A stretch of 64,000 nucleotides of DNA, taken from NCBI GenBank assembly GCA_022616055.1, contig JAKEFM010000284.1, forward strand, positions 18,636-82,635, given 5' to 3'. The translations under genes were made by a program, and so were the position numbers. The DNA is from Planctomycetota bacterium (lineage in GTDB: Bacteria; Planctomycetota; UBA1135; JAKEFM01). The notes under the pieces were generated by a model that did not search any database, had not been told where the DNA came from, and saw nothing but the letters and a program-made list of their open reading frames with translations. Positions within the stretch are counted from its first letter, which is position 1. Each line of letters opens with the position of its first letter. Positions 3,727-46,804 of the stretch are shown in pieces.

Positions 3727-3985
3727 CCCTATCCCCGGCGATGGAACCAGGCGGCCGCGCGGGCGAGGCGGTGGGCGTTCCCGAGCGCGACGGCAGCGAC
3801 GCGCATCCGGCGCGGTGTGTCGCGCCTCTGGGCGAGCCATCCGGAGGCCAGCGCGAGCGGCAGGCCGCGGAGGACGGAGGACGAGGAAGGGGCTCAGCGC
3901 TCCGCCACGTCGGGAGGGCACGGGATCCGAGAGATGCGGAACGACCCCCGTTCCCGGGATGGCAGTGGGGAGGGAGACGGATCCC

Positions 3986-6900: not shown

Positions 6901-7354
6901 CGGCGCCGCCGAGCCTCGGGCTGGCGAAGAGGACGCGCTTGCCGTCGGGGTGCCAGCCCACCACGCGATCGCCCATCGGGTGCCAGGTGAGGCGTTTCGG
7001 CGTCCCTCCCGTCGTCGGCAGCACGTAGACGTCTGCGTTCCCCTCGTACTGGCCGGTGAACGCGACGAGCCGTCCGTCGGGCGAGAAGCGCGGGCTCGAC
7101 TCGAGCCCGGCGTGGCTCGTGAGCCTCCGGGCGGTCCCGCCCGCGCGGGAGGCGATCCACACGTCGTTCGCGTAGACGAAGGCGACCTCGGCCGCCGAGA
7201 CGGTCGGGTCCTGGAGGAGGAGCGTCTCGCCCGCGGCGGCCGCGGGGGTCGGGACGGGCGCCTGGACCTGGACCGCCGTCGCCGGCCGGGCGCAGGCGGT
7301 GAGGGCCAGGATGGCGAGAGGGAGGGAACGGACGGCGTGGTGGCGGGGCGACAT
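3986..7354 (-). CDS. Exported tricorn-protease-like S41 peptidase (beta-propellers + PDZ-like + S41 core)
   Basis: 1122 aa with a signal peptide (LPLAILALTACARPATA). Propeller segments repeat (SPRFSPDGRLVAFTG, DPVWSPDGTKVAWFSD, DPKWSPDGKRILFND). The C-terminal S41-like core reads GGQLADYVVSVL...VVNEMAGSGGDAMPYLFQ. It carries an E/K-rich low-complexity insert. Confidence 0.85.
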   Translation of the reverse strand: MSPRHHAVRSLPLAILALTACARPATAVQVQAPVPTPAAAAGETLLLQDPTVSAAEVAFVYANDVWIASRAGGTARRLTSHAGLESSPRFSPDGRLVAFTGQYEGNADVYVLPTTGGTPKRLTWHPMGDRVVGWHPDGKRVLFASPRLGGAEVARLYLVSVDGGPEELLEIPRAFRATFGGEGKIVYTPVPDAFRTWKRYRGGRTTPIWIFDRATKEVEQVPHVVATDTFPCFVDGEVFFASDRDGVMNVWRFKPGGKEATRVTDFRDFGVRNMSAGGGAIAFERGGAIHLLDPRKNQSTRLSILCPSDGLEGRPRWQDAKGSVRKASVAPNGKRAVFETRGEVVTVPREHGDARNLTNSPAAHDRDPVWSPDGTKVAWFSDASGEYRLLVRDHLGKEEAKAFDLGGGAFFHDPKWSPDGKRILFNDKTNRLAFVTLETGALTDVWRSAGSLGVVRPAGVWSGDSAWIAFEQRDPSTTYDRVALFEVATGKVLRVTDAFGSADGPCFSRDGKFLFFRASTASGPNRFGLDMSASAARYGRGNLYVCVLRKGEKSPVAPRSDEGVGDAEEDEEKGAKEEEKGKGEEKGKEEGQEKEPGPETRPKKKEPPKTALDAEGLDQRVLALPLPEGDYGSLQCGEKALYFLVEAEAPEEEGDGPRIGTVLKAFEFKKRKAKEVAKGVADYEISADGKSLLLRTKEGWSLADLEAKEKKALAVDAVKVRVDPEREWPQILREAWRIERDYFYDRNMHGIEWPKMWDRWSAFLPHVRHRSDLNVLVAEMIGELCCGHEYVGGGEMPEVPREAPVGLLGADFAVENGRHRIARIYAGQNWNPGLRAPLTEPGVDARVGDYLIAVNGVPLTGAENLERAFVHTADRQTELTLSEQPDGSNPRTATVVPVADDQSLRKRAWVEANRMRVEDLSGGRLAYVYMPDTGFQGRVSFDRDFYSQLGKEGVVLDERFNHGGQLADYVVSVLDRKVLCYWMNREEWLGRSPFGTIEGPKVMVVNEMAGSGGDAMPYLFQKMEIGPLVGTRTWGGLVGISGYPPLMDGGSVTAASFGIMDTEGNWAVENVGVHPDVEVVEWPKEMIAGKDPQLEKAVSLAMDALKKSPPRKPPVYKPPTTR

Positions 7355-7430
7355 GCGGTCGGACTCCGGAGCGAGGAGCGCGCCGGGGACTCTATCGCGA
7401 TCGCGCGGCCTGCAGAGGGCCAGGCTCCGG

Positions 7431-7457
7431 GGAACCCGATGTCACGGCGAAGGGGTC
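7431..7457 (+). promoter_or_regulatory. Candidate ECF-type promoter (GGAACC-N18-GTC) upstream of sigma-fusion gene 1
   Basis: GGAACC lies at 7431-7436 and GTC at 7455-7457, about 22 nt before ATG 7479. The spacing is one nt longer than in the better match at 51803-51828, and the -10 reads GGTC rather than CGTC. Confidence 0.3.
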
Positions 7458-7478
7458 CGCGGGATATTCCAAGCGACC

Positions 7479-10439
7479 ATGGCCCCGGATCCCCTCCCCG
7501 CCCGGCCGGAGATCCTCCTCGCCAATGCCGACTGGGTGCGGGCGCTCGCCCGGAGCCTCGCGAGCGACTCCGCGGAGGCCGACGACCTGGAGCAGGAGAC
7601 CTGGCTCGCGGCCCTCGACCACCCGGCCCCCACGGGCGGACGGCTCCGACCCTGGCTCGTCCGGGTGCTGCGCAACCTCGTGCGGAAGAGGCGTCGAACC
7701 GACCTCCGCCGGAAAGCGAGGGAGGAGGCCTCCGCCGGACCCTCCCCTCCCGGCGATCCCGCGGCGCTCGTCGAGCGGATCTCGATTCAGCAAGACGTCG
7801 TCCGGACGGTGGTCGCCCTCGACGAGCCCTATCGGTCCACGCTCCTCCTCCGGTACTTCGAGGGGCTCGAGATCGGCGAGATCGCACGCCGCCAGAGGAT
7901 CCCCCACGCCACGGTCCGGCAGCGACTGAAGAGGGGGCGGGAGCGCCTCCGCGAACGGCTCCTCCCTCGCTATGGAGGTGATCGGGAGGCCTGGTCGGCC
8001 GCGATGCTGCGCCTCGCGGAAACGCTCCGACCGCACCCGGCGCCGCTCCCACCCGGGGTCCCGGTGCTCGCCGCCGCCGGGAAGAAGGTGGCGGTCGGGA
8101 TCGCCGCGACCCTCCTCGTCGGCGTCGTCGGCTGGAGGGCAGGGATCTTCCCCGTCGGGCCGCCCGCAAACCCGATCCCCCCGACACCCGTGGCGGAGGC
8201 CACGCCCTTCCCAGGGAACGAGCGGGAGACCGGGAGGTCGGCGGACGAGTCGAGGTCTCCGGGTGCCGTGCGACGTGCTGCGGTCGCGGCTTCGCCCGCG
8301 ACCGACGGAGGATCGGGAGACGCGACCGCGTCCGGCCGTCTCGTCGTCCGGGCGCGCTGGAGGGAGGACGGCAGGGCGGCGGAGGGAGTCGTGGCGGTGG
8401 TCGGGAGGCCGGGTTCGACGGACTCGTGGACGGCCTGCGCGGAGACCGACGATCGAGGTGAGGTCCACTTCGTGCGCCTCCTCGCCGGTCGGTTCCGGGC
8501 TGCCCTCTGGGGGGGCGAGGAGGAGGAGGTGCTCGTGGCCGGAGGGGAGGAGGTCCGCGTGGAGTTGTCGGTCCCGCGCGGATTCGCGGTCGTGGGACGC
8601 GTCGTCGACCAAGGAGAGAGAGGCGTCCCCTCGGCCGATCTCTGGCTCTCGGCTCCCGAGAATTCCCGGCTCGGACTCGTCGTCTGCAAGACGGACGAGT
8701 CGGGAGGGTTCCGCCTCCCGTTCGTGACGGTGGACCAGTTCATCGGGGCGCGTGCCGCCGGGAAGCCCCCTTCCTACCTGCAGTCCGTCCGCGGCCGACC
8801 GGGGGACGAGGTCCGGATCCGGATCGTCCTCGAAGATTCCACGGCCCGGCTCGCGGGGAGCGTCTTCGACGGCTCCGGGGCTCCCGTCGCGGGTGCGTCC
8901 GTCGCCGTCACCGACCCGGACCGGAACTCGACCGTCCTGCTCTTCGACGGTCGAGGGACCCGCAATCCGCCGCCGCAGTGGAAGGTGACGGACGGAAGCG
9001 GAGCGTTCCGGTTCGACTCCCTCGCGCCGAGGCGCCTGCTCCTGGTCGTCTGGGCGCGGGGATTCGGCCTGTTCCGCAGGGTGATGGAGGCGCCCTCCAC
9101 GGACGAGGAGGAGGTCCGCGTGACGCTCGAGCCGGAGGCGCGGGTGTCGGGTCGCGTGACGGACGACCGCGGCCGCCCTGTCGCTCGCGCGAGGGTGGAG
9201 CGGATCGGGCCCGAGTCCATCTCTCGGTCGAGCGTGACCTCGGACGAAGACGGACGGTTCGAGCTCGCCGACCTCCCCGCCGAGGAGGCGACCTTCACGG
9301 CCCGCCACGATCGCCTCGGATTCGCCCTCGTCCGGCTGCGGCCGGAGGCGGGTCGGACGAAGGAGTGGAACCCGGTCCTGGCGAAGGAGGGGGGGCTCTC
9401 CGGCGACCTCGCCGACGCGTCGGGCCGTCCGCTCGGGGGCTGGTCGATCACCGTCCGGGACCCCTCGGAGCGCGATGCGCGAGAGACGGTTGTCCAGACC
9501 CGCTCGGACGGGTCGTTCTCCGTCCCGCTCCCGCCGGAGGGGCGACTCGAGATCCAGGCCTGCGCGCCCGGGGCCTGGACGGAGTTCCCGGCGCTCGTGC
9601 GACGCGACGTCGATCCCGACGCCGGCCCGATCCACCTCGTCCTCGCCGAACCGGATCGCACGTTCGGCCGGATCCTCGGGGCCGTCGCCGACCCCGAGGG
9701 GAAGCCGTCGGACGACGCGCTCGTGAGCGTCGACTCTCCCGGCTCGGCCCTGTGGCGGGGGTTCGTCCCCGAGGCCGGGACCGGCCGATTCGAGATCGAA
9801 CGGGTTCCTCCGGGACCCTGCCTCGTGGAAGTGCGCCCCCGCGAGTTCCCCTGGGTGTCCCTCGGTTCGCTCGAGGTCCGGGCGGGCGAGGTCGTCGACG
9901 TCGGGGCGGTCCGCCTCCGGCGGGGAGGAACGCTGAGCGGCGAGATCACTGGCGCCGCGGAGGCGTCGCTCGCGACCCTCGAGATCGAGCTCGCCGCCGA
10001 GGAATGGAAGGCTGCGAGGCCCGTCAGCCGGACCGGCAAGCGATTCTGGACGGGAAGCCTCGCCCCGGGCCGCTATCGACTCTCGGTCCGAGGAGACGGC
10101 CTCTGGAGCGAGGGGGCCGAGTGCGAGGTCGAGGAGGGGCTCGCGAAGCGAGTCGAGATCGCGGTCGAGCGCGCGGGTCTCCGGCGGGCGCTCTTCGAGC
10201 TCCCGCCCGACGCGACCCGGCCCGGTTGGCTCTGGTGCGAGGTCTACCGGGACGAGGAGCCGATCTGGGTCTGGGGCATGGAACCTTCGCCCTGGCGCGC
10301 GCCGGAGGCCCGGATCTCCGTCCCCCCCGGCGTGTATCGCCTCCATGCGGGGACGGACACCGGCCTCTCCTACGAGGGGCCGCTCGAGATGGGGGCCGCC
10401 GGCGAGGAGGGACCCTCGCTCTCCGTCCCTCTGCGCTAG
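7479..10439 (+). CDS. ECF sigma factor fused to a TM helix and a ~700 aa extracytoplasmic CarboxypepD_reg-like repeat array (copy 1)
   Basis: 986 aa from ATG 7479; the track start at 7299 adds an R-rich, non-protein-like leader. Sigma region 2 reads DDLEQETWLAALDH...WLVRVLRNLVRKRRR. Region 4 reads LDEPYRSTLLLRYFEGLEIGEIARRQRIPHATVRQRLKRGRERL. The TM helix is KKVAVGIAATLLVGVVGW. At least five G-x-V-x-D-x-x-G-x-P motifs follow (GRVVDQGERGVPSADLWL, GSVFDGSGAPVAGASVAV, GRVTDDRGRPVARARVER, GDLADASGRPLGGWSITV, GAVADPEGKPSDDALVSV). Confidence 0.8.
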   Translation: MAPDPLPARPEILLANADWVRALARSLASDSAEADDLEQETWLAALDHPAPTGGRLRPWLVRVLRNLVRKRRRTDLRRKAREEASAGPSPPGDPAALVERISIQQDVVRTVVALDEPYRSTLLLRYFEGLEIGEIARRQRIPHATVRQRLKRGRERLRERLLPRYGGDREAWSAAMLRLAETLRPHPAPLPPGVPVLAAAGKKVAVGIAATLLVGVVGWRAGIFPVGPPANPIPPTPVAEATPFPGNERETGRSADESRSPGAVRRAAVAASPATDGGSGDATASGRLVVRARWREDGRAAEGVVAVVGRPGSTDSWTACAETDDRGEVHFVRLLAGRFRAALWGGEEEEVLVAGGEEVRVELSVPRGFAVVGRVVDQGERGVPSADLWLSAPENSRLGLVVCKTDESGGFRLPFVTVDQFIGARAAGKPPSYLQSVRGRPGDEVRIRIVLEDSTARLAGSVFDGSGAPVAGASVAVTDPDRNSTVLLFDGRGTRNPPPQWKVTDGSGAFRFDSLAPRRLLLVVWARGFGLFRRVMEAPSTDEEEVRVTLEPEARVSGRVTDDRGRPVARARVERIGPESISRSSVTSDEDGRFELADLPAEEATFTARHDRLGFALVRLRPEAGRTKEWNPVLAKEGGLSGDLADASGRPLGGWSITVRDPSERDARETVVQTRSDGSFSVPLPPEGRLEIQACAPGAWTEFPALVRRDVDPDAGPIHLVLAEPDRTFGRILGAVADPEGKPSDDALVSVDSPGSALWRGFVPEAGTGRFEIERVPPGPCLVEVRPREFPWVSLGSLEVRAGEVVDVGAVRLRRGGTLSGEITGAAEASLATLEIELAAEEWKAARPVSRTGKRFWTGSLAPGRYRLSVRGDGLWSEGAECEVEEGLAKRVEIAVERAGLRRALFELPPDATRPGWLWCEVYRDEEPIWVWGMEPSPWRAPEARISVPPGVYRLHAGTDTGLSYEGPLEMGAAGEEGPSLSVPLR

Positions 10440-17253: not shown

Positions 17254-20200
17254 CTACTTGAACGACTTCGCCTTCCCGTCGATCGTCTTCAGGAACTGGA
17301 CGAGGTCGGCGCGCATCAGCGGGTCGGCGACGAAGTGGTGCTGGACCCCGCCGTTGACATCCTGCGAGCCGTCGAGCACCTGCTCGAGCGTCTGGGCGAG
17401 GCCGCTGTAGAAGTAGGGCGCCGTCTCGTGGACGCTCAGCAGCGAGGGGATGTTGAACCCGTTCGCGCCGAGCGGGGCGACCGCCGCCCCGATGTCCGCC
17501 AGATTGCTGCGGATCTCGTTCACGCGGCCCCCGCCCGTGGTGAAGGTCCCGACGTTGATCAGGACGTTCGCCCCCTGCTTCGCCGTCTGGCGCAGCTCCG
17601 CGCCCACGACGCGCTCCTCGCCGAATCCCAGGCCGGTGTCCGTCGAGGGAGGCGCGCCGTAGTCGACCGTCGATTGCGTCCACTTCTTTCCGCTGTGGCA
17701 GCTCGCGCAGCTGAATCCCGTCTCGACGAGGTCGAGCTGCTTGAAGAGGAGGCGACCCCGCTTCGCCGCGAGATCCTTCTTGGAGACGGGGGCGACGCTC
17801 GGGCGGACGCCCTGGGCGATGAACGTGGCGATCGAGTCCTGGCGGGCGTCCCTGCCGCCGCTGCGCGCCGGCAGGAAGTTCGTCACGCCGGGGGGATTCG
17901 ACAGCGCGAGCCCGCGGCGGGCGCCCGACAGGTTCCCCCTCGAGACCCACACCCCGCTCGGCGTCCCCGGCGGACCGGGCGGGTCCGGAAGCTGGGGGTT
18001 CGCCCCGACGGTGTACTCGAGGACCGACGTCTGGTCCTCCCCGAGCTCGTCGACCCCTCCGACCACGAAGATCTGGTTCGTGCTCAGGGACCCCGCGATC
18101 CCGAACCGCGCGCGCGGGGAGGGGAGGGAGGTGTGCGGGGGAGGGACCACGGCCACGGCCTGCGCCGTGTACTCCTCCACCGTCGGCAGGACGGTGCCTG
18201 CGCCGTCCTCGCCTCCGATCACGAAGATCCGGGAGGAGACGCCGCGGAGAGCGGCGGCCGCGCCGAGGTTGCGCCGCAGCGTCAGCCCCGCCGGATTGAA
18301 CGCGGTCCAGGTTCCCGCCCCGGCCGGGTCGGCTTGGAAGCGCTGCACGGGGTTCGCGTTGGCGACCGAGGGGGCCCCCTCGGAGCCCGTGTTCCCGCAG
18401 ACGACGTGGATCAGCTGGAGCGGCTCCGCCGCATTGATTCCGCCGGCGGCGGCGATCCCGAACTGCGCGACCGCCGTGGGCAGTGCCGCGACCGTGCGCC
18501 AGACGTCGGTCGCGGGGTCGTACTCCTCGACGAGGGTCGTCGGCGAGGTCGTGGGCGCCGTGCTCACGTAGCCGCCGATCGCGTAGATCCGGGGGCCGAG
18601 AGGCGTCTCCACGGCCGCGGCTCCCAGGGAGTGCCGCGGCGTGAAGCCCGTGTACCCCTTCGTCGTCAGGGTGTTCGTGCGCGGATTGAACTCGAGGACC
18701 GCGTCGGTGACGGGGACGAGGGTGCCGTCCCCCGCCCCGCTCCGGCCGCCGAGGATGAACACCCGGTCGTCGGCGAGCGTGGCGACCGCGAAGTCCCGGC
18801 GCCCGGCGGCGAGGGCCGGCAGCGCGGCGCCGGCGGCGAGGTCGTTCGTCGTCCCGACGGCTCCCGTCACCTGCTGGAACTGCTCGAGAAGGGCCGAGTC
18901 CGTGGGCGTCGCGCCGCTCGTCCCGCCGATCGCGAGGAAGAGCCGGTCGTCGTCGATCAGCCCGCGGCCGCCGAAGACCCCGCGCGTGTTCAGCTCGAAG
19001 TCCTGGTTCTCGTCGCGCACCCCGCTCCAGTTGAGGATCCGCTGGTCGTGCGGCGCCTTCTTGTTGAACATCCCGTCGAGCGGGATCGTCTGCCGCGGGC
19101 CGGCGTCGAACATCCAGGTGACGTTGTCGGAGCGGCCGTTGGGGTGGCAGACGATGCATCCCCCCCAGGCGTCCGCCGACATCCGGCCGTCCGGCCCGCG
19201 GCCGCTGTAGAAGAGCTCCGCCCCCTGGTGGGCGGTCTCCTGCGGACTCCCCGCCGGCGGGAGGGGGGAGGAGAGCGCCGTCCAGGTGATCGCGGGGGCC
19301 GCCGGGTTCGAGATGTCGACCGCCGTCACGGACCGGCTGATGAAGTTGAACACGAACGCCCGCGTCCCCGACTCGTTGATCGCGACGCCGCGGGGCGCCT
19401 TCCCCGGGATCTCCGCGCCGCCCGGGTTCTCGAGGTCGACGCGCACCACTCCGTTCGGGTCTCCGTCGGACTCGGGCGCGCCGATCGTCGGGATCCCCCC
19501 CGCATCGACCGTGAGGCGGACGAGGAGGTTCGCGTGCTGGACGGCGATCCAGGCGTCGGATCCGTCCGGCCGCCAGGCGATCGCGACGGGGTTCGTGAGG
19601 AAGAAGCGCGGGGCGGGGGTGAAGTTGATCCCCTGGTTCAGGTTGAGGGGCGCCGTCTGGCGGACGAGCGGGTCGGTCTGGGCCGCCGTCACCTCGAGCC
19701 GGGTCGTCGTGTCGAAGACGGAGACGAGCCCCTGCGCCATCGTGTTGAAGCGGAGCGGACCGTTCGGCGAGGCCCCCGTGCTCACGACGTAGGCGAACCC
19801 TCCGGGGCGGATCGAGAGCGAGGCGAGCTGGTTCGGAAAGCAGCCCGTCGAGGTCGGAAAGGTCTGGGGGTTCGTCGAGGCCACCGCCGGGGTCGTCCCG
19901 CTGCCGGGCGCCAGCCGGCCGTTGGCGTTGAACCCCGTCACGGCCTGGGGGGCGAGCGCGACGGGATTCGGGGCCACCAGAGGCGTGTACGACGTCGCGC
20001 CGAAGGCGACGACGCGTCCCTCCCGCTGGTCGTCCTGCCCCTCCTCGACGCTCGACTTGCCCGGGGCGAGCCCGGCGAAGAAGAGGGGGACGAAGACGGT
20101 CTCGTCCGTGTCGTCCCCGTCCCCGTCGTCCGTGACGGCGATCGCCCGGGGGGAGGAGCCGAAGGGGGAGAGGTCGACCGTCGCGACGACGAGCGGCTTC

Positions 20201-20643
20201 AGGAGGGTCGCGTCGATCACGGAGACGGTGTTCGACGAGGCGTTCGCGACGTAGAGCCGCGTCCCGTTCGGCGACATCGCGGCCGCGGTCGGCTCGACCC
20301 CCACGCGGATCTTCCCCTTCTTCTTCAGGGTCGCGAGGTCGACGATCACGACCGTGCCGTCGAGGGCGTTCGTGACGAACGCCCGCGCGTCGCCCGGCTG
20401 CACGACGACGCTGCTCGGCTCGTTCCCGACCTTGATCTCGGCGAGCTTGACGGGCAGCGGCCCCGATGTGTCGAAGACGCTCACCGTCCTCGACTCGGGG
20501 TTGACGCACAGGAGGCGCTGCTCGTCGTGGGTGAGCGCGATCGGGCTCGACTGGAGGTGGCCACGCGCGAGAGCCGGCCCGACGACCCCGAGGAAAGCGG
20601 CGACGACGAGTCCAGGAAAACGAGGCGACCTCGATTGCGACAT
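17254..20643 (-). CDS. Large exported multidomain protein: YVTN-type beta-propeller + Kelch-like repeats + two c-type haem sites
   Basis: 1129 aa from ATG 20643, which has a GGGAG RBS inside ATGGGAGCCGCCATG. Signal peptide FPGLVVAAFLGVVGPALA. YVTN-like repeats: AFVTNALDGTVVIVDL, LYVANASSNTVSVIDA. Two CxxCH motifs: GGCIVCHPNG and FSCASCHSGKKW. Confidence 0.8.
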   Translation of the reverse strand: MSQSRSPRFPGLVVAAFLGVVGPALARGHLQSSPIALTHDEQRLLCVNPESRTVSVFDTSGPLPVKLAEIKVGNEPSSVVVQPGDARAFVTNALDGTVVIVDLATLKKKGKIRVGVEPTAAAMSPNGTRLYVANASSNTVSVIDATLLKPLVVATVDLSPFGSSPRAIAVTDDGDGDDTDETVFVPLFFAGLAPGKSSVEEGQDDQREGRVVAFGATSYTPLVAPNPVALAPQAVTGFNANGRLAPGSGTTPAVASTNPQTFPTSTGCFPNQLASLSIRPGGFAYVVSTGASPNGPLRFNTMAQGLVSVFDTTTRLEVTAAQTDPLVRQTAPLNLNQGINFTPAPRFFLTNPVAIAWRPDGSDAWIAVQHANLLVRLTVDAGGIPTIGAPESDGDPNGVVRVDLENPGGAEIPGKAPRGVAINESGTRAFVFNFISRSVTAVDISNPAAPAITWTALSSPLPPAGSPQETAHQGAELFYSGRGPDGRMSADAWGGCIVCHPNGRSDNVTWMFDAGPRQTIPLDGMFNKKAPHDQRILNWSGVRDENQDFELNTRGVFGGRGLIDDDRLFLAIGGTSGATPTDSALLEQFQQVTGAVGTTNDLAAGAALPALAAGRRDFAVATLADDRVFILGGRSGAGDGTLVPVTDAVLEFNPRTNTLTTKGYTGFTPRHSLGAAAVETPLGPRIYAIGGYVSTAPTTSPTTLVEEYDPATDVWRTVAALPTAVAQFGIAAAGGINAAEPLQLIHVVCGNTGSEGAPSVANANPVQRFQADPAGAGTWTAFNPAGLTLRRNLGAAAALRGVSSRIFVIGGEDGAGTVLPTVEEYTAQAVAVVPPPHTSLPSPRARFGIAGSLSTNQIFVVGGVDELGEDQTSVLEYTVGANPQLPDPPGPPGTPSGVWVSRGNLSGARRGLALSNPPGVTNFLPARSGGRDARQDSIATFIAQGVRPSVAPVSKKDLAAKRGRLLFKQLDLVETGFSCASCHSGKKWTQSTVDYGAPPSTDTGLGFGEERVVGAELRQTAKQGANVLINVGTFTTGGGRVNEIRSNLADIGAAVAPLGANGFNIPSLLSVHETAPYFYSGLAQTLEQVLDGSQDVNGGVQHHFVADPLMRADLVQFLKTIDGKAKSFK

Positions 20644-21173
20644 GGCGGCTCCCATTCTCGAATCGGCCGTTCGACACCCCCGGCCCGGAGGGGGAACGGA
20701 AGCGTACGGACCAGCGCGCTCCCGGGTCAAGGAACCCGAGCCGAACGAAGCGGCAGAGGGGGAGCGCGCCGGTCCCCCGTCGGCGCGCCTCCGGGGCGGG
20801 CCCGGAGAGTGGAAGCGCCGGAGCCCGCGCAACCTCCCGGGTCGCGCCGCCGGGACCTCCCCGACCCGGATCCACCCGCGGGTCCCTGGCGGGGGGGGGC
20901 CGCAGGGCCGCCCCCCGCCCGGCGTCCGGCCCTCCCTTCGAAGTCTGAAAACGACACTCGTCCGGCTTCTATCCAGGATTCGACCCAATTCTAGGACTGT
21001 GCAAGCCTAGATCCTGGTTCTTGGGGGTTGACAGGGTCCCCGCAGGATTCGATCCTCCCCGGCGCAAGCCCCGGCGCGGGCGGGACGCCGCCGGGACGAC
21101 GACCGCAACGGGAGGGACCTGAACGGCGCTGCGGCGGAAAAACCCTCCCGCGAAGAAGGAAGGAGTCCGTTCG

Positions 21174-22409
21174 ATGCGAAACAAGATGGGATTCGGTTTC
21201 TGGGTGGCCGCGGCTCTCCTGGGCGCCCCCCCCGCGGCGCTGGCGGACGGAGACTGCGTCGTCTCCGTGGACGACGGCGTGCTGATCGTCGAGGGGGACG
21301 AGGCGGACAACAACGTCTCCGTGATCGAGATCGCGCCGGGGGTCTGGGAGGTCGTCGGCAACGACGGCACCACCGTCAACGGCCTCGCCTCCGACACCTT
21401 CTCCGACGAGATCGAGGACATCCTCGTCGACCTGGGGGACGGGGACGACCTCTCCGACTACTCCGGGGAGATCCCCGGCGACCTGACGGTCCTCGGCGGG
21501 GCGGGGCGCAACGAGTTCCTCCTCTTCGCCTCCACCGTCGGCGGCGACGTCCTCGTCGAGAACGAGGGCTCGGGCGAGACCGACTTCCAGGAGGGGACCC
21601 TGATCGAGGGGGACCTGACGATCGTCAACGGCGAGGGTTTCGACGAGTCCAAGATCAGCGCCACCGAGATCGGCGGCGACGTCTCCATCGACAACGACGA
21701 CGGCGACCCGCTGACGGGCGCCTCGAGCGTGACCGACCTCGAGGAGGGCACCTTCGTCGGGGGCGACTTCGTCGTGGAGAACGGCGAGGGCTTCGACGCC
21801 CTCGACATCGGCGAGGCCGAGGTCGCGGGGGACCTCGTCATCTCGAACAAGGACGGCAACGAGCTGACCGGCGAGGGGAGCTCCACGGACGTCGAGGCCG
21901 TGATCGGCGGCGACCTGAAGGTCGACAACAAGACCGGGAGCGACGAGGTCGAGGTCGAGGAATCCGAGGTCGGCGGCGACGTCACGATCAAGAACCAGTC
22001 CGGCGACTCCGCCGTGCAGGTCCAGGACGCCGTCCTCGGCGGATCGCTCCTCGTCGACAACAAGGTGGGATTCGACGAGATCGAGCTCTCCGGGACCGAG
22101 GTGGACGGCGACGTCACCCTCAAGACCTACAACGGAGGGAGCGAGATCGTGCTCGGAGCCGAGGTCTCGATCGGGGGCGACCTCCTCGTCGACACCCGCA
22201 ACGGCTCCGACGCCATCACCCTGGAGGGCCTCCTCGTCGAGGGGGCCACCGCGATCCTCACGGGGCCGGCGGCCGACGTGCTCACGGTGATCGCCTCGGC
22301 CTTCGAGGAGGCCCTCACCGTCGACGGCGGTTCCGGCGCCGACACGTTCGCCGACGGGGGCGGCAACGGGTTCGCCGGCGGGATCCAGCTCACGAGCATC
22401 GGGCTCTAG
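21174..22409 (+). CDS. Secreted, extremely acidic repeat protein (solenoid-like 22/28-aa alternating repeats), paralog 1
   Basis: 411 aa. RBS GAAGGAAGGAG. Signal peptide FGFWVAAALLGAPPAALA. Repeats are of the type GDLTIVNGEGFDESKISATEIG / GDVSIDNDDGDPLTGASSVTDLEEGTFVG. D and E greatly outnumber K and R. The C-terminus has an RTX-like GGSGADTFADGGGNGF. Confidence 0.8.
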   Translation: MRNKMGFGFWVAAALLGAPPAALADGDCVVSVDDGVLIVEGDEADNNVSVIEIAPGVWEVVGNDGTTVNGLASDTFSDEIEDILVDLGDGDDLSDYSGEIPGDLTVLGGAGRNEFLLFASTVGGDVLVENEGSGETDFQEGTLIEGDLTIVNGEGFDESKISATEIGGDVSIDNDDGDPLTGASSVTDLEEGTFVGGDFVVENGEGFDALDIGEAEVAGDLVISNKDGNELTGEGSSTDVEAVIGGDLKVDNKTGSDEVEVEESEVGGDVTIKNQSGDSAVQVQDAVLGGSLLVDNKVGFDEIELSGTEVDGDVTLKTYNGGSEIVLGAEVSIGGDLLVDTRNGSDAITLEGLLVEGATAILTGPAADVLTVIASAFEEALTVDGGSGADTFADGGGNGFAGGIQLTSIGL

Positions 22410-22458
22410 TCGTCCCCTCCCCCGCCTTCCGGGCGGGGACGCGCCGGACGCAGACAAC

Positions 22459-22496
22459 GAGAGCGGCGGAGCCGGGCTCCGCCGCTCTCTCTTTCT
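22459..22496. terminator. Bidirectional intrinsic terminator between the convergent acidic-repeat genes
   Basis: A perfect 15-bp inverted repeat, GAGAGCGGCGGAGCC (22459-22473) / GGCTCCGCCGCTCTC (22475-22489), is followed by TCTTTCTTCGT on the plus strand. A second 7-bp GC hairpin (CCCCGCC/GGCGGGG) lies at 22420-22438. Confidence 0.7.
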
Positions 22497-22519
22497 TCGT
22501 ACCGGTCGGCGCGGCCGGC

Positions 22520-24082
22520 CTACGGGAAGCTCTCGAAGACGACGGACCCGACGAACGCGTTCCCGCCGAGGTCGGTGAAGAGGTCGATCCCGGATCCCCC
22601 CTCGGCCCGGAAACTGTTGAAGGCCGAGTTGAGGATCGTGAGGAGGTCGTCCCCGGACCCCGTCCGGATCGTCGTCTTGGCCGCCACCTCGAGGACGTCG
22701 AGCGTGACCGTGTCGATGCCGCCGCTCACCTCGTAGATGAGGGTGCTGCCGATCGAGACCCCGGCGAGCCCCGAGGAGGACTCCGTCAGGAAGTCGCTCC
22801 CGCCGGAGCCGAGCCGGATGTCGGCGAATCCGGCGATCGTCGTGTCGTCGAGGTTCACGGCGTCGAAGCCGGTGGACGCCTGGATCTTCAGGCTCCCCAT
22901 GGAGGCGTTCTCGATGTCGAGGCCGCTGCCGCCGCCGTCGACCCGGATGAAGACGCTCCCGACGATCGTCGAGCCCTCCTCGACGTCGACCTCGTCGAAG
23001 CCGGTCTCGGAGCGGACGGCGAGGCTCCCCAGGACGAGGGTGCCGTCGTCCACGCCGACCGAGCTCCCCTCGCCGAGCGCGTTGCCGGCGTAGTTGCGGA
23101 TGTCGACGCTGCCGAGGATCTCGGCCCCCTTGAGGCCCACCTCGTCGAAGCCGTCGCGGTTCTTGACGGTCAGGTTGCCGCCGAAGAACCCCGGCCCGAA
23201 GGAGGAGTCGCTCCCGAGGCCCGCCGCGTCGCCGTCGTTGTTCTCGACGAGGACGTTGTCCTTGCACACGGAGTCCTCGATCTCGACCTCGTCGAACCCG
23301 TCCTTGTTGATGATCCACACGAGGCCGCCTAGCTCCGCCTCGATGTCGGTCGAGCTGCCGAGGCCCGAGAGCTCGTCGCCGTCGCGGTTGTTGATGAAGA
23401 GGGTCCCGTCGACCGAGAAGTCCCCGATGTCGAGGGCGTCGAAGCCGACGCCGTTCTCCACGAGGAGGTCGCCGCCGATGACGCTGTCGTTCTCGCCGTC
23501 CGTGACGCTGGAGGCGCCCGTGAGCGCGTCGCCGTCGCCGTTGTCGATCAGGACGGTCCCCGCGACCTCCGCGGCGTCGAGCTTGAACTCGTCGAAGCCG
23601 TCGCCGTTGACGACGGTCAGGTTCCCCGCGATGAAGCTCCCCTCGAAGTCGGTTTCGCCGGAGCCGGCGTTCTCGACGAGGACGTCGCCGCCGACGTTGG
23701 AGTCGATGAGGAGGAACTCGTTGCGGTCGGCCCCGCCGAACACGGTGAGGCTCCCCGGGATCTCGCCGGAGACCGTCGTGAGGTCCGCGCCGGCGCCCAG
23801 GTCGACGACGATGTTCGTGACCCCGCCGGAGAGGGTGTCCGAGGCGAGGCCGTTGATCAGCGTGGTGAGGTCGCCGCTGACGACCCACGTGCCCGAGCCG
23901 GGCGGGGTCTCCGTGACGAAGATCGCGTTCGCGTCGGCGTCTCCTGTGACCAGGAGGACGCCGCCGGAGACGGACGCCGTGCACGAGCCGGCGGCGAGGC
24001 CGAGGCTCGGCGTCCCGAGAAGCGCCGAGGCGACGACGACGGCACGGGCAGCTCCGGAGAAGAGACGGTGGAACGGACTCAA
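22520..24082 (-). CDS. Secreted, extremely acidic repeat protein, paralog 2
   Basis: 520 aa from TTG 24082, chosen for the RBS GGAGGAGGAG 8 nt upstream; the track start at 24319 is R/G-rich. Signal peptide LFSGAARAVVVASALLGTPSLGLAA. The N-terminal module matches paralog 1 (C-x-x-SV-x-x-GVL-x-V-x-GD ... NGLASDT ... RNEFLL...VGGDVLVEN-GSGETDF), as do the repeats. Confidence 0.75.
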   Translation of the reverse strand: MSPFHRLFSGAARAVVVASALLGTPSLGLAAGSCTASVSGGVLLVTGDADANAIFVTETPPGSGTWVVSGDLTTLINGLASDTLSGGVTNIVVDLGAGADLTTVSGEIPGSLTVFGGADRNEFLLIDSNVGGDVLVENAGSGETDFEGSFIAGNLTVVNGDGFDEFKLDAAEVAGTVLIDNGDGDALTGASSVTDGENDSVIGGDLLVENGVGFDALDIGDFSVDGTLFINNRDGDELSGLGSSTDIEAELGGLVWIINKDGFDEVEIEDSVCKDNVLVENNDGDAAGLGSDSSFGPGFFGGNLTVKNRDGFDEVGLKGAEILGSVDIRNYAGNALGEGSSVGVDDGTLVLGSLAVRSETGFDEVDVEEGSTIVGSVFIRVDGGGSGLDIENASMGSLKIQASTGFDAVNLDDTTIAGFADIRLGSGGSDFLTESSSGLAGVSIGSTLIYEVSGGIDTVTLDVLEVAAKTTIRTGSGDDLLTILNSAFNSFRAEGGSGIDLFTDLGGNAFVGSVVFESFP

Positions 24083-24086
24083 GGCA

Positions 24087-24122
24087 ATCGCTCCTCCTCC
24101 CCGTGCCCTACACAGGAGCGAT
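24087..24122 (-). promoter_or_regulatory. 5'-UTR hairpin overlapping the Shine-Dalgarno of acidic-repeat gene 2
   Basis: A 9-bp inverted repeat, ATCGCTCCT (24087-24095) / AGGAGCGAT (24114-24122). In the minus-strand mRNA the 3' arm AGGAGCGAT is part of GGAGGAGGAGCGAT, which sits immediately 5' of TTG 24082. Confidence 0.4.
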
Positions 24123-24867: not shown

Positions 24868-24940
24868 TCGGGGGCCGGAGGGCCCCTCGGGCCGCTCGCC
24901 CGAGGACCGACGGATCGGGGCGCCCCGACGCTCGGGCTTC

Positions 24941-25687
24941 ATGACCCACTCCCTGGTGCTCGCCCTCGCGTACGCGAGCGTGTGCGCCCTCTGGTGGGGA
25001 GTGCATCGCCTCGTCCCGCTCTGGCGGGATCCGGAGCGCCCCCGGTTCCCGCATCCCTGGAAGGAGGTCGCCATCGCGCTGCTCGCGGTCGTGGGAGTGG
25101 TGCTCCTCGGACAGCTCTGGGTCCGCGGGATCCGTTTCCCTGCGCGGGGCGCGTGGATTCCCCTGGTCGAGTCGTTGAACCAATTCCTCATCTTCTCGCC
25201 GATCCTGGCGGTGCCGTGCCTGCGGCGGCAGGGCTGGGCGAGCGCGTGGGTCCAGCGCCCCGCGCTGGGGGCACGACTCGCCCTGGGGCTCGGGTTGGCG
25301 ATCCTCGCGGTCTCGCTCTACTCGGCGCTGGAGCGCGGCGCACCGGATTGGGGGGAGACGATGCGGGGCGTCTTCACGCCGGCCCGGGCGCACCTGGCCG
25401 TTCAGGTCCTCCTCGAGGACCTGGCGATCGCGATCCTCTTCGTCCGAGTGTCCGCCGCGACGGGCCCGCGCGTGGCGATCTTGGCCGTGGCCGCGCTCTT
25501 TGCCGCCGCTCACATCCCCTCCATGCTCGCCCGCGGCGCCACGATCCAGGAGGTCGCGGGCCTGCTTCGCGATCTTGGGCTCGGCGTGCTGGTCCTGGGC
25601 ACGGCGTGGCGAAGCGCGGACGTCGCCTGGGTGTGGCCGGTCCACTACTCCCTCGACATGACGCAGTTCCTGAGCCGCCCGAACTGA
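24941..25687 (+). CDS. CPBP-family-like (CAAX/Abi) intramembrane protease, divergent
   Basis: 248 aa and polytopic. Motif 2 is F-x-x-x-H (LFAAAHIP) and motif 3 is H-x-x-x-D (VHYSLDM). Motif 1 is degenerate (LLEDLAIAILFVR instead of EExxxR). Confidence 0.55.
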   Translation: MTHSLVLALAYASVCALWWGVHRLVPLWRDPERPRFPHPWKEVAIALLAVVGVVLLGQLWVRGIRFPARGAWIPLVESLNQFLIFSPILAVPCLRRQGWASAWVQRPALGARLALGLGLAILAVSLYSALERGAPDWGETMRGVFTPARAHLAVQVLLEDLAIAILFVRVSAATGPRVAILAVAALFAAAHIPSMLARGATIQEVAGLLRDLGLGVLVLGTAWRSADVAWVWPVHYSLDMTQFLSRPN

Positions 25688-25753
25688 CGACGGCCCGGAC
25701 CCGACCCGCTCCCCGACCCGCCCGCCGGCGGCGGGACGGAGGGGCGCCCCCGC

Positions 25754-27151
25754 TCAGGCGGGCCTCTCCTTCCTCTTCGCCGCTCGCCTCGTCTCCTCGA
25801 GGCCCCCCGCCACCGAGTCCGTGCCCTTCGCGACCCGGTCGTTCCACGACTCGGATCCCGGCGGGCCCGGCGCCTCCTCCATCGAGATGCACCCCTCGAC
25901 CGGGCAGACGAGCGCGCAGAGGTTGCAGCCGACGCATTCCTCGAGGTGGACGAAGGGGACGTAGCGGTCGGGGAAGGAGCCCGGAGCGCGGACTGGCACC
26001 TTCGGGACCTCCTTCGGGACGACCGTGTGGCCGGCGGCGCGGGACTGCGCCTCGGTGCGACCGGGGAGGTGGATGCACTGGTGCGCGCCGTCCATGCAGG
26101 CGACGTAGCAGAGCTGGCAGCCGATGCACTTGCCGGGGTCGATCACCGCCTTGAGGCGGTAGTTGAGGTCGAGCTCGCCCCACTCGCGGAAGGCCGGGAC
26201 GGCGGCGCCGCGGAGGTCGTTCACCGACTTCAGACCTCTGGCGTCGAGGTAGTCCGAGAGCCCCTCGACCATGTCCTCGACGATCCGGAAGCCGTAGTGC
26301 ATGACGGCGGTGCAGACCTGGACGCTCGCCGCGCCGAGGGCGATGAACTCGGCCGCGTCGCGCCAGTTCGAGATGCCGCCGATGCCGGAGATCGGGAGGC
26401 GGGCCGTCGCCGGGTGGCGGGCGAGGCGGCCGATCATGTGGAGGGCGATCGGCTTCACGGCCGGCCCGCAGTAGCCGCCGTTCGTCGAGAAGGACCCGAC
26501 GCGCGGGAGCGGGACGAGGCGGTCGAGGTCGACCCCCATCAGGGACTGGAGGGTGTTGATCAGGGAGAGGCCGCGGGCGCCGCCGCGCAGGGCCGCCTCG
26601 GCGGGCTCCGTGATGTCCCCGACGTTCGGCGTGAGCTTGACGAGGACGGGGGTGCGCGCGAACTCGACGGCCCAGCGCGTGATCTCCTCGAGGACCTTCG
26701 GCTCCTGCCCGACGGCCGAGCCCATCCCCCGCTCGCACATCCCGTGGGGGCAGCCGAAGTTCAGCTCCAGGCCGTCGGCGCCGGCGTCCTCGGAACGGCG
26801 GATGACCTCCTTCCACTCCTCCTTCGTCTCGACCATCAGGGAGACGACGAGGGCGTTCCTGGGCCAGCGCTTCTTCACCTCCGCGATCTCCCGGAGGTTC
26901 TCCTCGATCGGGCGGTCGGTGATCAGCTCGATGTTGTTGAAGCCGATCATCCGCCGGTCCCCGTAGTCGATCGACCCGAAGCGGCTGTTCACGTTCACGA
27001 TCGGGTTCCCGATCGTCTTCCAGACCGCTCCCCCCCATCCCGCGTCGAACGCGCGGAGGACCTGGGCGGCGCTGTTCGCGGGGGGGCCCGAGGCGAGCCA
27101 GAAGGGGTTCGGGCTCCTGATCCCCGCGAAGTCGATCGAGAGATCCGCCAT
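25754..27151 (-). CDS. preA: NAD-dependent dihydropyrimidine dehydrogenase subunit PreA (DHOD-like TIM barrel + 2x 4Fe-4S)
   Basis: 465 aa from ATG 27151 (MADLSIDFAGIRSPNPFWLASGPP...). It contains NFGCPHGM and LTPNVGDI, and C-terminal ferredoxin motifs CIGCQLCYVAC and CVGCNLCALVCP. The 971-aa track ORF runs through because no upstream in-frame stop exists. Confidence 0.9.
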   Translation of the reverse strand: MADLSIDFAGIRSPNPFWLASGPPANSAAQVLRAFDAGWGGAVWKTIGNPIVNVNSRFGSIDYGDRRMIGFNNIELITDRPIEENLREIAEVKKRWPRNALVVSLMVETKEEWKEVIRRSEDAGADGLELNFGCPHGMCERGMGSAVGQEPKVLEEITRWAVEFARTPVLVKLTPNVGDITEPAEAALRGGARGLSLINTLQSLMGVDLDRLVPLPRVGSFSTNGGYCGPAVKPIALHMIGRLARHPATARLPISGIGGISNWRDAAEFIALGAASVQVCTAVMHYGFRIVEDMVEGLSDYLDARGLKSVNDLRGAAVPAFREWGELDLNYRLKAVIDPGKCIGCQLCYVACMDGAHQCIHLPGRTEAQSRAAGHTVVPKEVPKVPVRAPGSFPDRYVPFVHLEECVGCNLCALVCPVEGCISMEEAPGPPGSESWNDRVAKGTDSVAGGLEETRRAAKRKERPA

Positions 27152-27219
27152 CGTCGGGCGCCCGGTTCCGGCGCCGAGGGCGCGGAGCATAGCACGGCCC
27201 TCGGGAGGCCCGGATCCGG

Positions 27220-35386: not shown

Positions 35387-36679
35387 CTACGCCCCCATCG
35401 CCGCGAGCGACTCCCCGAGGATCCTCACCCCCTCGTCGATCTCCGAGGCCTGGATCGTGAGGGGCGGGGAGATCCGGACGGCGTTCCCGTAGAGGCCCCC
35501 CTTCCCGATCAGGAGCCCCCGCTTCTTCGTCTCCTCGAACAGGCGAAGCACCGCCTTCGGGTTCGGCGTGCGGTCCTTCTTCGTCTCGTCGGCGACCAGC
35601 TCGATCGCCTGCATCAGGCCCATCCCGCGGACCTCGCCGATCGTGCGGGGGTGCTTCCTCTGGAGTTCCTCCAGCCCCTGGCGTAGCCGCTCCCCCTGGC
35701 GCGCCGCGTTCGCCGGGAGGTCGTGCTCCCGGATGTATCCGATCGTCGCGTTCGCCGCCGTGCAGGAGATCGGATTGCCGCCGAAGGTCGAGAGGGTGAG
35801 CCCCTTCAGCGCGTCGGCGACCGCGGGGGTCGCGATCGTCGCGCCGATCGGGAGGCCGTTCGCGATCCCCTTCGCCATCGTCATGACGTCGGGCTCGACG
35901 CCGTAGTTCTCGATCCCCCACATCCTCCCCGTCCGCCCGAAGCCGGTCTGGACCTCGTCCGAGATGAAGACGCCGCCGAAGCGGCGGACGATCTCCGCGG
36001 CGATCTCGAAGTACTCCTTCGGCGGGGTGATGAACCCCCCGACCCCGAGGATCGGCTCGGCCAGCATCCCGGCGACGCGGCCTGTCGTCGTCGTCTGGAT
36101 CAGCTCCTCGATGTCCTTCGCGCAGGCGACGCCGCAGGAGGGGTACTCGAGCTTGAGCGGGCAGCGGTAGCAGTAGGGCGCGGGGGCGTGCTTGATCGCC
36201 CCCACCTGCGTCGGGAGGTTGCGCCACGGGGCGTGGGCCGTCAGGGCCTGGGCGAGGAGGGAGCGCCCCGAGTAGCCGTGGCGCAGCGCGACCAGCTCGG
36301 CGTTCCCGGTCGCGACCTGGGCGAGCATCACCGCCGTCTCGTCCGCCTCGGTCCCCGAGGCGGTGAAGAAGCACTTCGAGAGCTTGCCGGGCGTGATCGA
36401 GGCGAGGGTCTCCGCGAGCGTGACGATCGGGATCGTCGGGTAGACCGTCGAGACGTGGCCGAGGCGGCCCATCTGCGCGATCACCGCCCCGTTCACCTCC
36501 GGATTCCCATGCCCGACCGAGATCGAGAGGATCCCGCCGAAGAAGTCGAGGTAGCTCTTTCCGTCGAGGTCCTTCAGCCTCACCCCCTTCCCCTCGGCGA
36601 GGACGACCGGCTCCTCGTAGTAGTTGAAAGTCCCGAAGAGGAACTCCTTGTGCTTCGCGCGGACGGTTCGGCTGTCCAT
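35387..36679 (-). CDS. Class-III (omega) aminotransferase, probable beta-alanine/aminobutyrate transaminase
   Basis: 430 aa from ATG 36679; a GTG at 36742 is an alternative start. Recognisable segments are SISVGHGNPEV, FISDEVQTGFGRTGRMWG and DVMTMAKGIANGLPIG (the PLP lysine). Confidence 0.88.
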   Translation of the reverse strand: MDSRTVRAKHKEFLFGTFNYYEEPVVLAEGKGVRLKDLDGKSYLDFFGGILSISVGHGNPEVNGAVIAQMGRLGHVSTVYPTIPIVTLAETLASITPGKLSKCFFTASGTEADETAVMLAQVATGNAELVALRHGYSGRSLLAQALTAHAPWRNLPTQVGAIKHAPAPYCYRCPLKLEYPSCGVACAKDIEELIQTTTTGRVAGMLAEPILGVGGFITPPKEYFEIAAEIVRRFGGVFISDEVQTGFGRTGRMWGIENYGVEPDVMTMAKGIANGLPIGATIATPAVADALKGLTLSTFGGNPISCTAANATIGYIREHDLPANAARQGERLRQGLEELQRKHPRTIGEVRGMGLMQAIELVADETKKDRTPNPKAVLRLFEETKKRGLLIGKGGLYGNAVRISPPLTIQASEIDEGVRILGESLAAMGA

Positions 36680-36796
36680 GGTCGGGGGGACCTCGGCGAG
36701 GGGGGGAGAGCGTAGCGCCTGCGGCTCGGCGCGGGGAGGCACGGATCCCGCCCGACCCGACTACACTCCCCGCTCCAACCTCGTAAGGAGAAGCCG

Positions 36797-44842: not shown

Positions 44843-45217
44843 CTACTTCCGGACGGGCGCGCAGAGTTCGAGGTCGTGGCCGTCGGGATCGGCGAAGTAG
44901 AGCGAGACGGCCGGCATCCACTCGTGGAAGACCGGGCCCTGCACCGCGACGCCTCGCTCGCGGAGCGCCGCGGCGGCCGCCTCGACGTCCTTCTCCGCGA
45001 CGGCGAAGGCGAAGTGCTGGGTCGGCCAGTTCCCCGCGTCCTCCTGGAGCACGACCATCCCCGCCTCGCCCCCGACGCGCAGGAAGAGCCACTTCCTCTT
45101 CTCGTCGCGGATCCCCTCCTCGAAGCCGAGGATCTCCCGGTAGAACGGCTCCGCGCGGGCGAGGCTCTTAACGCGGATGGCGACCTCGAAGAGGCCCCGG
45201 ATCGGGAGCGCCGCCAT
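44843..45217 (-). CDS. VOC/glyoxalase-family protein
   Basis: 124 aa: FEVAIRVKSLARAEPFYREILGFEE...HFAFAV...LYFADPDGHDLEL. Its ATG overlaps the mmsA stop (ATGA at 45217). Confidence 0.85.
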   Translation of the reverse strand: MAALPIRGLFEVAIRVKSLARAEPFYREILGFEEGIRDEKRKWLFLRVGGEAGMVVLQEDAGNWPTQHFAFAVAEKDVEAAAAALRERGVAVQGPVFHEWMPAVSLYFADPDGHDLELCAPVRK

Positions 45218-46671: not shown

Positions 46672-46754
46672 CGCGGCGGTCTCCGGGGGAAGAGGGCCTC
46701 CTCCGTAGCCTAGCACCGAGCCGGGTCGCGAGATCCTCCCGCGTCCCAGGGTGG

Positions 46755-46780: not shown

Positions 46781-46804
46781 ATCGTACGGGTCCGGAGGCG
46801 CGCC

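Follow-up and report, generated by a model that had tools for sequence, protein, structure and literature searches.

Substrates of type I secretion systems (T1SSs) carry an uncleaved C-terminal signal and no N-terminal signal peptide, and the genes for their ABC transporter and membrane fusion protein (MFP) are usually linked. The cell envelope of Planctomycetota is still debated. In the Marinomonas primoryensis surface adhesin MpAFP, region IV consists of RTX-like repeats of 19 to 21 amino acids (aa) that form a Ca2+-bound β-solenoid (PMC3492233). The repeat consensus of MpIBP is xGTGNDxuxuGGxuxGxux, and ice is bound via a flat, uncharged Thr/Asx array (PMC3492233). Here, we describe two genes, A and B, in a stretch of 64,000 nucleotides (nt) from a Planctomycetota bacterium (contig JAKEFM010000284.1, positions 18,636 to 82,635; hereafter, the window). 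Gene A (window positions 21174 to 22409, + strand) encodes a hyper-acidic protein of 411 aa and gene B (22520 to 24082, − strand) its acidic paralogue of 520 aa; both products are predicted to be secreted β-helix proteins. We give about even odds to the reading that A and B are exported, polyanionic, cation-binding β-helix rods that serve as surface or matrix (adhesive or structural) proteins. The components of this reading differ in strength and are weighed separately below.

Repeat anatomy and predicted fold of A and B

A and B were 52% identical over 362 aa (E = 1e-97), and the open reading frame (ORF) coordinates of the convergent paralogous pair proposed in an earlier note on this DNA were right. 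A profile hidden Markov model (HMM) built from twelve 22-aa units was used to anchor the repeats. Successive spacings were 21, 22, 22, 22, 29, 22, 27, 22, 22, 22, and 23 aa in A and 21, 22, 29, 22, 27, 22, 27, 22, (28), 23, 21, and 22 aa in B, and the same unit spacing recurred in orthologues and paralogues. The alternating 22/28-aa periodicity claimed earlier is genuine, since the HMM-anchored spacings show it, but it takes the form of 22 and 27 to 29 aa and is partial, with four pairs in B (aa 153 to 351, a 22-aa followed by a 27- to 29-aa unit in each pair; 23030 to 23626, − strand) and two in A, in which plain 22-aa units follow. Autocorrelation of A peaked at lags 22 (0.39) and 44 (0.32) against a shuffle maximum of 0.02, and that of B peaked at 49 to 51, barely over the shuffle maximum (−0.24 versus −0.27). 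Tandem Repeats Finder detected no tandem array at the DNA level; the units are therefore old and diverged.

The consensus of the short unit (n = 41) was G-D-[LV]-x-[VI]-x-N-x-x-G-F-D-E-h-x-h-[ED]-[DE]-x-x-h-G (h, hydrophobic). Positions 3 and 5 were hydrophobic in all units, G1 was conserved in 90%, G10 in 93%, D12 in 78%, N7 in 71%, and F11 in 66%; most noncore positions were Asp or Glu in 34 to 61% of the units, and no position was dominated by Thr. Long units corresponded to a short unit with an insertion of 5 to 7 aa in the turn that follows the Asn (N-x-D-G-[DN]-x-L-[TS]-G-x-x-S-x-T-D). In A, the array (aa 102 to 378; 21477 to 22307, + strand), delimited by the unit HMM, its layout, and DSSP, comprised about 12 to 13 coils of 22 aa, with long units at aa 168 to 196 (29 aa) and 219 to 245 (27 aa). 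It was flanked by an N-terminal cap (aa 25 to 101; 21246 to 21476, + strand; C-x-x-SV-x-x-GVL-x-V-x-GD ... DGTTVNG ... DLGDGDD), which was conserved in all subfamily members and recognizable in the consensus of the broader family, and by a C-terminal cap (aa 379 to 411; 22308 to 22406, + strand; GGSGADTFA plus GGN-x-F ... L-x-S-I, located by regular expression and subfamily conservation), whose conservation extends over the subfamily and about 100 of 159 family members. All motifs quoted in the earlier note (C-x-x-SV-x-x-GVL-x-V-x-GD, NGLASDT, RNEFLL, VGGDVLVEN-GSGETDF, and the C-terminal GGSG-x-D-x-F-x-D-x-GGN) were found in both proteins. The Cys of the supposedly conserved N-terminal Cys module, however, was missing in the subfamily member P0003, and A contains a single Cys only. 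A lipoprotein reading of this Cys was rejected: the residues at −3 to −1 are unlike a lipobox, and P0003 lacks the Cys.

AlphaFold2 (AF2), run on a 13-sequence alignment, returned confident all-β solenoids for A (pLDDT 91.1, pTM 0.88) and B (pLDDT 86.9, pTM 0.84). Values of pLDDT below 50 were confined to the signal peptides, and in B the pLDDT dipped to 63 to 75 exactly in the four long loops. DSSP assigned three strands to each 22-aa unit, at positions 3 to 7, 12 to 16, and 20 to 21. On these models, A and B are very likely three-sided β-solenoids with about 22 residues per coil, in line with the β-solenoid suggested earlier, for which an AlphaFold model had been named as the check. With Foldseek, the most probable solved match of A was 3p4g (probability 1.0, fourth by E value), with TM scores of 0.41/0.53 and 17 to 19% identity; the remaining matches of A and B were all parallel β-helices, insignificant and with TM scores of ≤0.3. 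Sequence searches of the PDB with single sequences or with the profile gave nothing meaningful.

In the mechanism that we propose, the paralogues A and B would be exported by the Sec pathway and then fold outside the cytoplasm into an elongated, three-sided parallel β-helix, probably right-handed. Each coil would be formed by one 22-residue unit, in which strand 1 (h-x-h-x-N) leads through a tight Gly turn (x-x-G-F) into strand 2 (D-E-h-x-h); an acidic turn then connects to the short strand 3, and a G-G-D turn follows. The core would be made up of the hydrophobic residues at positions 3, 5, 14, 16, and 21 and of a stacked Phe at position 11, and the Asp and Glu residues in most remaining positions, presumably facing outward, would make the protein a polyanionic rod, very roughly 6 to 9 nm long to judge from the coil count. 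A first turn longer by 5 to 7 residues (D-G-D-x-L-T-G-x-x-S) in alternate coils would line one edge of the rod with protruding loops. Through the N/G-x-x-G-x-D-x-h turn, in the register of the RTX nonapeptide, several coils might coordinate a divalent cation, Ca2+ or another, as RTX β-rolls and region IV of the Marinomonas ice-binding adhesin do, and the rods would act at the surface or in the matrix.

The proposal that the solenoid works like an RTX-type Ca2+ β-helix was made because the unit HMM aligned to the RTX repeats of P0200, a PF00353 protein, in a constant register (N7 to G1, G10 to G4, D12 to D6, and h14 to U8), because the N terminus of P0200 ('SAGVLSVFGDNLDNSIVA...') resembles the N-terminal cap, and because of the precedent of MpAFP region IV. 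The nearest solved fold of A, 3p4g, is likewise Ca2+ bound and RTX-like. Several observations, however, weigh against RTX-like cation binding and the reading built on it. Each of the P0200 alignments was statistically insignificant, the subfamily profile alone matched no RTX proteins, and PF00353 did not match A or B even at E ≤ 10. A strict RTX nonapeptide was found by regular expression only once per protein, at aa 385 in A and aa 495 in B, and not as a tandem GGxGxDxUx array, and the full N-x-x-G-x-D turn was present in only 4 of the approximately 13 to 17 coils of each protein. The structural matches were weak (E of about 0.02 for A; none better than E = 0.05 and probability 0.23 for B), the AF2 models carry no ions, and the conserved Asn may form an Asn ladder instead of serving as a Ca2+ ligand. 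Nor did any conserved gene neighborhood hint at function: homologues elsewhere lie in unrelated contexts, and therefore no partner genes can be proposed. On balance, we lean slightly toward binding of divalent cations by A and B, judging from the resemblance of the motifs. Of the Ca2+-binding β-solenoid of the earlier note, the solenoid fold was thus supported by the models, and the Ca2+ is what we infer.

Family membership, charge, and evolution

Neither A nor B matched any model in Pfam-A or NCBIfam at E ≤ 10, including those for bactofilin (DUF583), RTX/HemolysinCabind, Beta_helix/NosD, pentapeptide, hexapeptide, Pectate_lyase, and autotransporter proteins. The earlier remark that no known repeat family could be assigned therefore held for the Pfam, NCBIfam, and PDB sequence searches. 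A word-indexed search of 5.8 billion proteins returned 13 relatives only. When HMMER was run exhaustively with the profile of the subfamily, 3,726 cluster representatives fell within E ≤ 1e-3; of these, 1,141 reached E ≤ 1e-10 and 32 reached E ≤ 1e-30. Ten family relatives matched no Pfam family above the curated cutoff, giving sub-threshold noise only, the relatives that were checked are named 'hypothetical protein' in the sources, and no paper or family model for a 22-aa repeat family turned up in full-text literature searches, Pfam, or NCBIfam. On these searches, the 22-aa family is undescribed; its fold class is already known, as is the general notion of acidic solenoids made of Gly/Asp repeats.

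Three modules made up the consensus of 100 distant members: an N-terminal module (G-N-V-x-x-x-V-x-G-G-x-L-x-I-x-GD-x-x-x-N ... DGTTING) that followed a Sec signal or LEPRxLL, the 22-aa repeat (VGGNLTVKNGDGDDSVSLSDSE), and a C-terminal module (DGGxGxDT...GN.F......GFE). All three aligned with A and B, which places both proteins in the family. Named members were mostly Planctomycetota, including the cultured Mariniblastus fucicola, whose homologue is P0188. LEPRxLL (Pfam PF07595), a planctomycete-specific cell-surface signal (PMC8567305), was recognized by a crude pattern in about two-thirds of the top 159 matches. A and B lack it and have a Sec signal instead, as do about 40% of the family. The putative signal peptide of A (aa 1 to 24; 21174 to 21245, + strand), read from the sequence, consists of MRNK, a hydrophobic core, and ALA|DG; residues 1 to 20 had a pLDDT of <50, and the N termini of relatives are equivalent. 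That of B (approximately aa 1 to 30; 23993 to 24082, − strand) was read in the same way, with a pLDDT of <50 at residues 1 to 28 and a predicted helix at 10 to 21. The signal peptides noted earlier in both proteins thus correspond to Sec-type N termini, and A and B are very probably exported, to judge from these and from the LEPRxLL motif in their relatives (PMC8567305).

Five giant planctomycetal relatives (P0160, P0169, P0172, P0178, and P0188; 1,800 to 2,960 aa) combine tandem solenoid blocks of 22-aa repeats with RTX or dockerin domains; these PF00353- or dockerin-bearing giants were retrieved by the broad-family profile. In at least one of them, P0169, the 22-aa repeat region lies beside canonical RTX repeats, not on top of them. 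A and B may represent, as independent proteins, an adhesin module found in such giants.

Within the family, A, B, and a third paralogue, P0005, are set apart by the Phe at unit position 11, by the alternating long-loop units, and by composition: the top 159 members had medians of 13% D+E and 6% K+R, compared with 16 to 24% and 2 to 3.5%, respectively, in these three. This hyper-acidic subfamily is rare, comprising A, B, P0005, orthologues in one other metagenome-assembled genome (MAG), and P0004, P0014, P0017, P0020, and P0027 (metagenome); no close relatives were found among GTDB representatives or JGI metagenome contigs. P0005 (372 aa, net charge −82) is encoded in the same MAG as A and B, on contig CCZJXZ010000120.1 (L004, 10001 to 11119), next to genes for glycosyltransferases, an ABC exporter, MacB/FtsX, APH-type kinases, and inositol-1-phosphate synthase, a neighborhood that may be a cell-envelope glycoconjugate cluster.

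D+E amounted to 21.4% in A and 16.0% in B and K+R to 2.7% and 3.5%, with net charges of −77 and −65, respectively, and a computed pI of about 4. The earlier statement that Asp and Glu dominate and Lys and Arg are nearly absent was borne out as to acidity and low K+R, but the commonest residue is Gly (about 17%). The acidity is specific to A and B and not proteome-wide, because the products of most neighboring genes had pI values of 5.2 to 10.9; the one exception, an FG-GAP protein (net charge −21), had a pI near 4. A halophilic proteome was ruled out as the cause of the acidity, since most neighbors have an ordinary pI.

The convergent pair, the hairpin between the two genes, and a PreA-like neighbor were syntenic in a second MAG (GCA_975197015.1, L003); window positions 21174 to 24082 were compared with L003 positions 2385 to 5303, and window positions 25754 to 27148 with L003 positions 2 to 1396. 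Between the two MAGs, amino acid identity was 79% for A (dS 0.20, dN/dS 0.65), 74% for B (dS 0.29, dN/dS 0.60), and 94.6% for the PreA-like protein (dS 0.23, dN/dS 0.13), so that A and B had accumulated about fivefold more amino acid change than this neighbor at similar synonymous divergence. Scaffold positions were slightly better kept than the others (0.78 to 0.82 versus 0.70 to 0.72). Net charge was kept between orthologues (−77/−75 and −65/−69) despite the gain or loss of 24 to 25 acidic positions per comparison, and conserved charge with turnover of acidic sites suggests selection on bulk charge. The pattern of rate and charge fits an exposed protein selected for its fold and bulk charge over specific side chains.

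A and B are real genes: in-frame G+C content at third codon positions (GC3) was 0.97 and 0.975, respectively (GC2, 0.41 to 0.46), the pattern expected of real genes in this genome, both have a ribosome-binding site (RBS), and their syntenic orthologues have a dN/dS of <1. The high dN/dS (0.60 to 0.65) and the lack of annotation and of a conserved context might have meant that the repeat ORFs are decaying or without function and have survived by chance in a high-GC genome. Such decay is nevertheless improbable in the extreme, given the intact ORFs of the same length in two MAGs, the conservation of scaffold residues, signal peptides, RBS, and terminator, the thousands of family members, and the confident AF2 models. 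Two variants compatible with the surface rod were also considered. In the first, A and B would leave the cytoplasm by the Sec pathway and stay in the periplasm as a divalent-cation buffer or envelope spacer. Only the Sec signal is recognizable, no outer-membrane anchor, lipobox, or known sorting domain was found in A or B with Pfam, NCBIfam, or by reading of the sequences, and the genes stand alone without secretion partners. Such retention is nonetheless unlikely in view of the planctomycete cell-surface motif of the relatives (PMC8567305), the adhesin-like giant homologues, and a high dN/dS, which is more typical of exposed proteins. In the second, A and B would not be mainly adhesins or scaffolds but polyanions interacting with minerals or metals, which act as a sink or template for cations (Ca, Mg, Fe, or other metals) or govern the nucleation of carbonate, phosphate, or oxide minerals at the cell surface. 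The extreme and protein-specific net charge, its retention while acidic sites turn over, and the predicted display of acidic residues on a rigid, regularly spaced lattice speak for this variant. No biomineralization or metal-handling genes, however, were linked in five genomic contexts, and the variant overlaps with the exported cation-binding rod without excluding it; as the principal function we hold it to be rather unlikely. Any particular biological role for A and B can at best be put forward tentatively, and nothing specifically supported the S-layer, ice, or mineral roles raised earlier.

The family counts thousands of members but is without a Pfam or NCBIfam model, solved structure, or name in the sources; defining it would annotate many predicted surface proteins of Planctomycetota. 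The high nonsynonymous rate, with net charge maintained, neatly illustrates selection that acts on a bulk property and not on single residues. If cation binding is true, the Sec-exported 22-residue design would join the short list of Ca2+-dependent β-solenoids, and protein engineering would gain a rigid, very highly charged repeat scaffold; if A and B are plain structural β-helices, what remains is a routine family description. More speculatively, and as a possibility to which we give clearly less than even odds, A and B might be the hyper-acidic extreme of an undescribed, mostly planctomycetal family with one RTX-like Gly-Asp turn per 22-residue three-sided coil. This would be a third Ca2+-binding solenoid architecture beside the 18-residue RTX β-roll and the 19-residue MpIBP helix, exported by Sec or the planctomycete surface signal and not by type I secretion; the long loops and bulk charge would turn the pair into a surface rod dedicated to binding cations or minerals at high capacity, possibly as a heteromer.

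Gene signals, intergenic hairpins, and neighboring genes

Gene A starts with ATG, 8 nt downstream of a Shine-Dalgarno-like AAGGAG (21160 to 21165, + strand), and gene B with TTG, 8 nt downstream of the Shine-Dalgarno-like GGAGGAGGAG (24091 to 24100, − strand). NCBI calls match both genes (A, L0323_20820, an exact match, P0001; B, L0323_20825), and the window proteins are identical to those of the MAG assembly GCA_973789155.1, labeled 'Planctomycetes bacterium'. The G+C content of the window is about 72%; long antisense ORFs in the region were dismissed as the usual high-GC artifacts, and a scan for sigma-70 promoters found none, which is uninformative in a planctomycete with 72% G+C. No further paralogue was detected in the window by tblastn, and no Rfam riboswitch or RNA family was detected in the whole window at gathering thresholds or at the locus at E ≤ 1.

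The spacer between the convergent genes is 110 nt long and folded better than shuffled sequences (z scores of −3.7 and −2.9). It contains a GC-rich hairpin with two perfectly complementary 15-nt arms and one central base (22459 to 22489), which is shared by both genes and, with its TCTTTCTT tail, extends to 22499 (+ strand). The hairpin was 94% conserved in the second MAG. The TCTTTCTT tract lies 3′ of the hairpin on the + strand, and the U-tract on the − strand is poor; the hairpin is terminator-like for gene A, with a weaker U-tract for gene B. The perfect 15-bp hairpin terminator of the earlier note was accurate as to the 15-nt arms, but the element folds as 14 bp with a 3-nt loop, and the gene B side has the poor U-tract. 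A second, smaller GC-rich hairpin (TCCCCGCC...GGCGGGGA; 22409 to 22444) is located immediately 3′ of gene A's stop codon and ahead of the main hairpin.

Gene A is divergent from a gene for a 1,129-aa secreted protein (17254 to 20643, − strand) with faint matches to YNCE/Kelch β-propellers and two CxxCH heme-binding motifs (CIVCH and CASCH), and gene B is divergent from a gene for a 106-aa protein, beyond which lie genes for a PreA-like dihydropyrimidine dehydrogenase, BlaR1/BlaI, and the FG-GAP protein. A gene for a 248-aa membrane protein (24900 to 25700, + strand) has no counterpart in L003 though its flanks align, and looks like an indel. The PreA-like gene (DHO_dh plus Fer4; 25754 to 27190, − strand) belongs to a loose cluster with genes at 35387 to 36742, 38868 to 40244, 40288 to 41160, and 45217 to 46920 (all − strand), whose other products are a class III aminotransferase, an amidohydrolase, a CN-hydrolase, and an aldehyde dehydrogenase. 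This cluster, from the PreA-like protein to the aldehyde dehydrogenase, resembles a reductive pyrimidine/β-alanine catabolic pathway. Two long ORFs (7299 to 10439, + strand, and 51956 to 55471, − strand) each contain extracytoplasmic function (ECF) sigma-70 regions 2 and 4 and CarboxypepD_reg domains; in both, the ORF finder probably merged a sigma factor gene with a downstream gene for a secreted protein. The gene at 361 to 3726 (+ strand) encodes a fusion of a Ser/Thr protein kinase and a WD40 propeller and lies next to that for a Tricorn-like protease (PD40, Tricorn_C1, PDZ_Tricorn, and Peptidase_S41; 3986 to 7354, − strand).

Comparison with RTX proteins, MpIBP, and other β-helices

A and B share with RTX β-rolls the Gly/Asp-rich turns followed by a short strand, a low pI, and one C-terminal GGxGxDxUx. 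In addition, N7-x-x-G10-x-D12-x-h14 of their units corresponds in register to G-G-x-G-x-D-x-U, and the N-terminal module GVL-x-V-x-GD-x-x-x-N-x-I also occurs in the RTX protein P0200. They differ from RTX proteins in their coil, which is predicted to have 22 residues and three strands whereas that of RTX has 18 residues and two strands. Domains of ABC, MFP/HlyD, or TolC proteins were found neither among the window ORFs scanned nor in four homologue contexts, a T1SS elsewhere in the genome being possible. Because no PF00353 model matched, both proteins have an N-terminal signal peptide, and T1SS genes were absent from the scanned ORFs, A and B fall outside PF00353. That they are nevertheless genuine RTX exoproteins, with a type I system for their secretion at another locus of the genome, would accord with the C-terminal GGSGxDxF nonapeptide, the low pI, the RTX-like turn register, the [h]E...P module at the extreme C terminus of about 60% of the family, and PF00353 on giant relatives. 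This is very unlikely, however, with a single strict nonapeptide per protein, with Sec-type N-terminal signal peptides, which T1SS substrates lack, and with no ABC, MFP, or TolC domains beside the homologues.

Region IV of M. primoryensis MpAFP/MpIBP (3p4g) resembles A and B in its repeats of about 20 residues and its G-x-G-x-D-x-h-x-h segment, and its extended parallel β-helix may have a counterpart in the predicted fold of A and B; both are acidic and extracytoplasmic, the latter as predicted for A and B from their signal peptides. The units, however, measure 19 to 21 aa in MpIBP versus 22 and 27 to 29 aa in A and B; region IV forms one module of an adhesin of 1.5 MDa secreted by a T1SS, and A and B are stand-alone proteins of 41 to 52 kDa with Sec signals; and the functional face is neutral and made of Thr/Asx in MpIBP, in contrast to the Asp/Glu-rich A and B. 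At the sequence level, region IV did not match A or B, and the structural match of B was weak. An ice-binding (antifreeze or ice adhesion) function like that of MpIBP region IV could be proposed on the ground that 3p4g, the best solved structural match of A, is also a repeat β-helix (PMC3492233). We regard it as most improbable, since the 19-aa repeat of MpIBP displays an uncharged Thr/Asx array (PMC3492233) whereas the 22-aa repeat here is rich in Asp and Glu and has no Thr ladder, since 3p4g was not convincingly retrieved by B, and since no cold habitat is documented.

Right-handed parallel β-helices (pectate lyase/PbH1 proteins, autotransporter passengers, and tailspikes) differ from A and B in that no family model matched and A and B have no β-barrel translocator domain, but they are alike in having about 22 residues and three strands per coil, as predicted for A and B, whose possible Asn ladder and aromatic stack add to this likeness.

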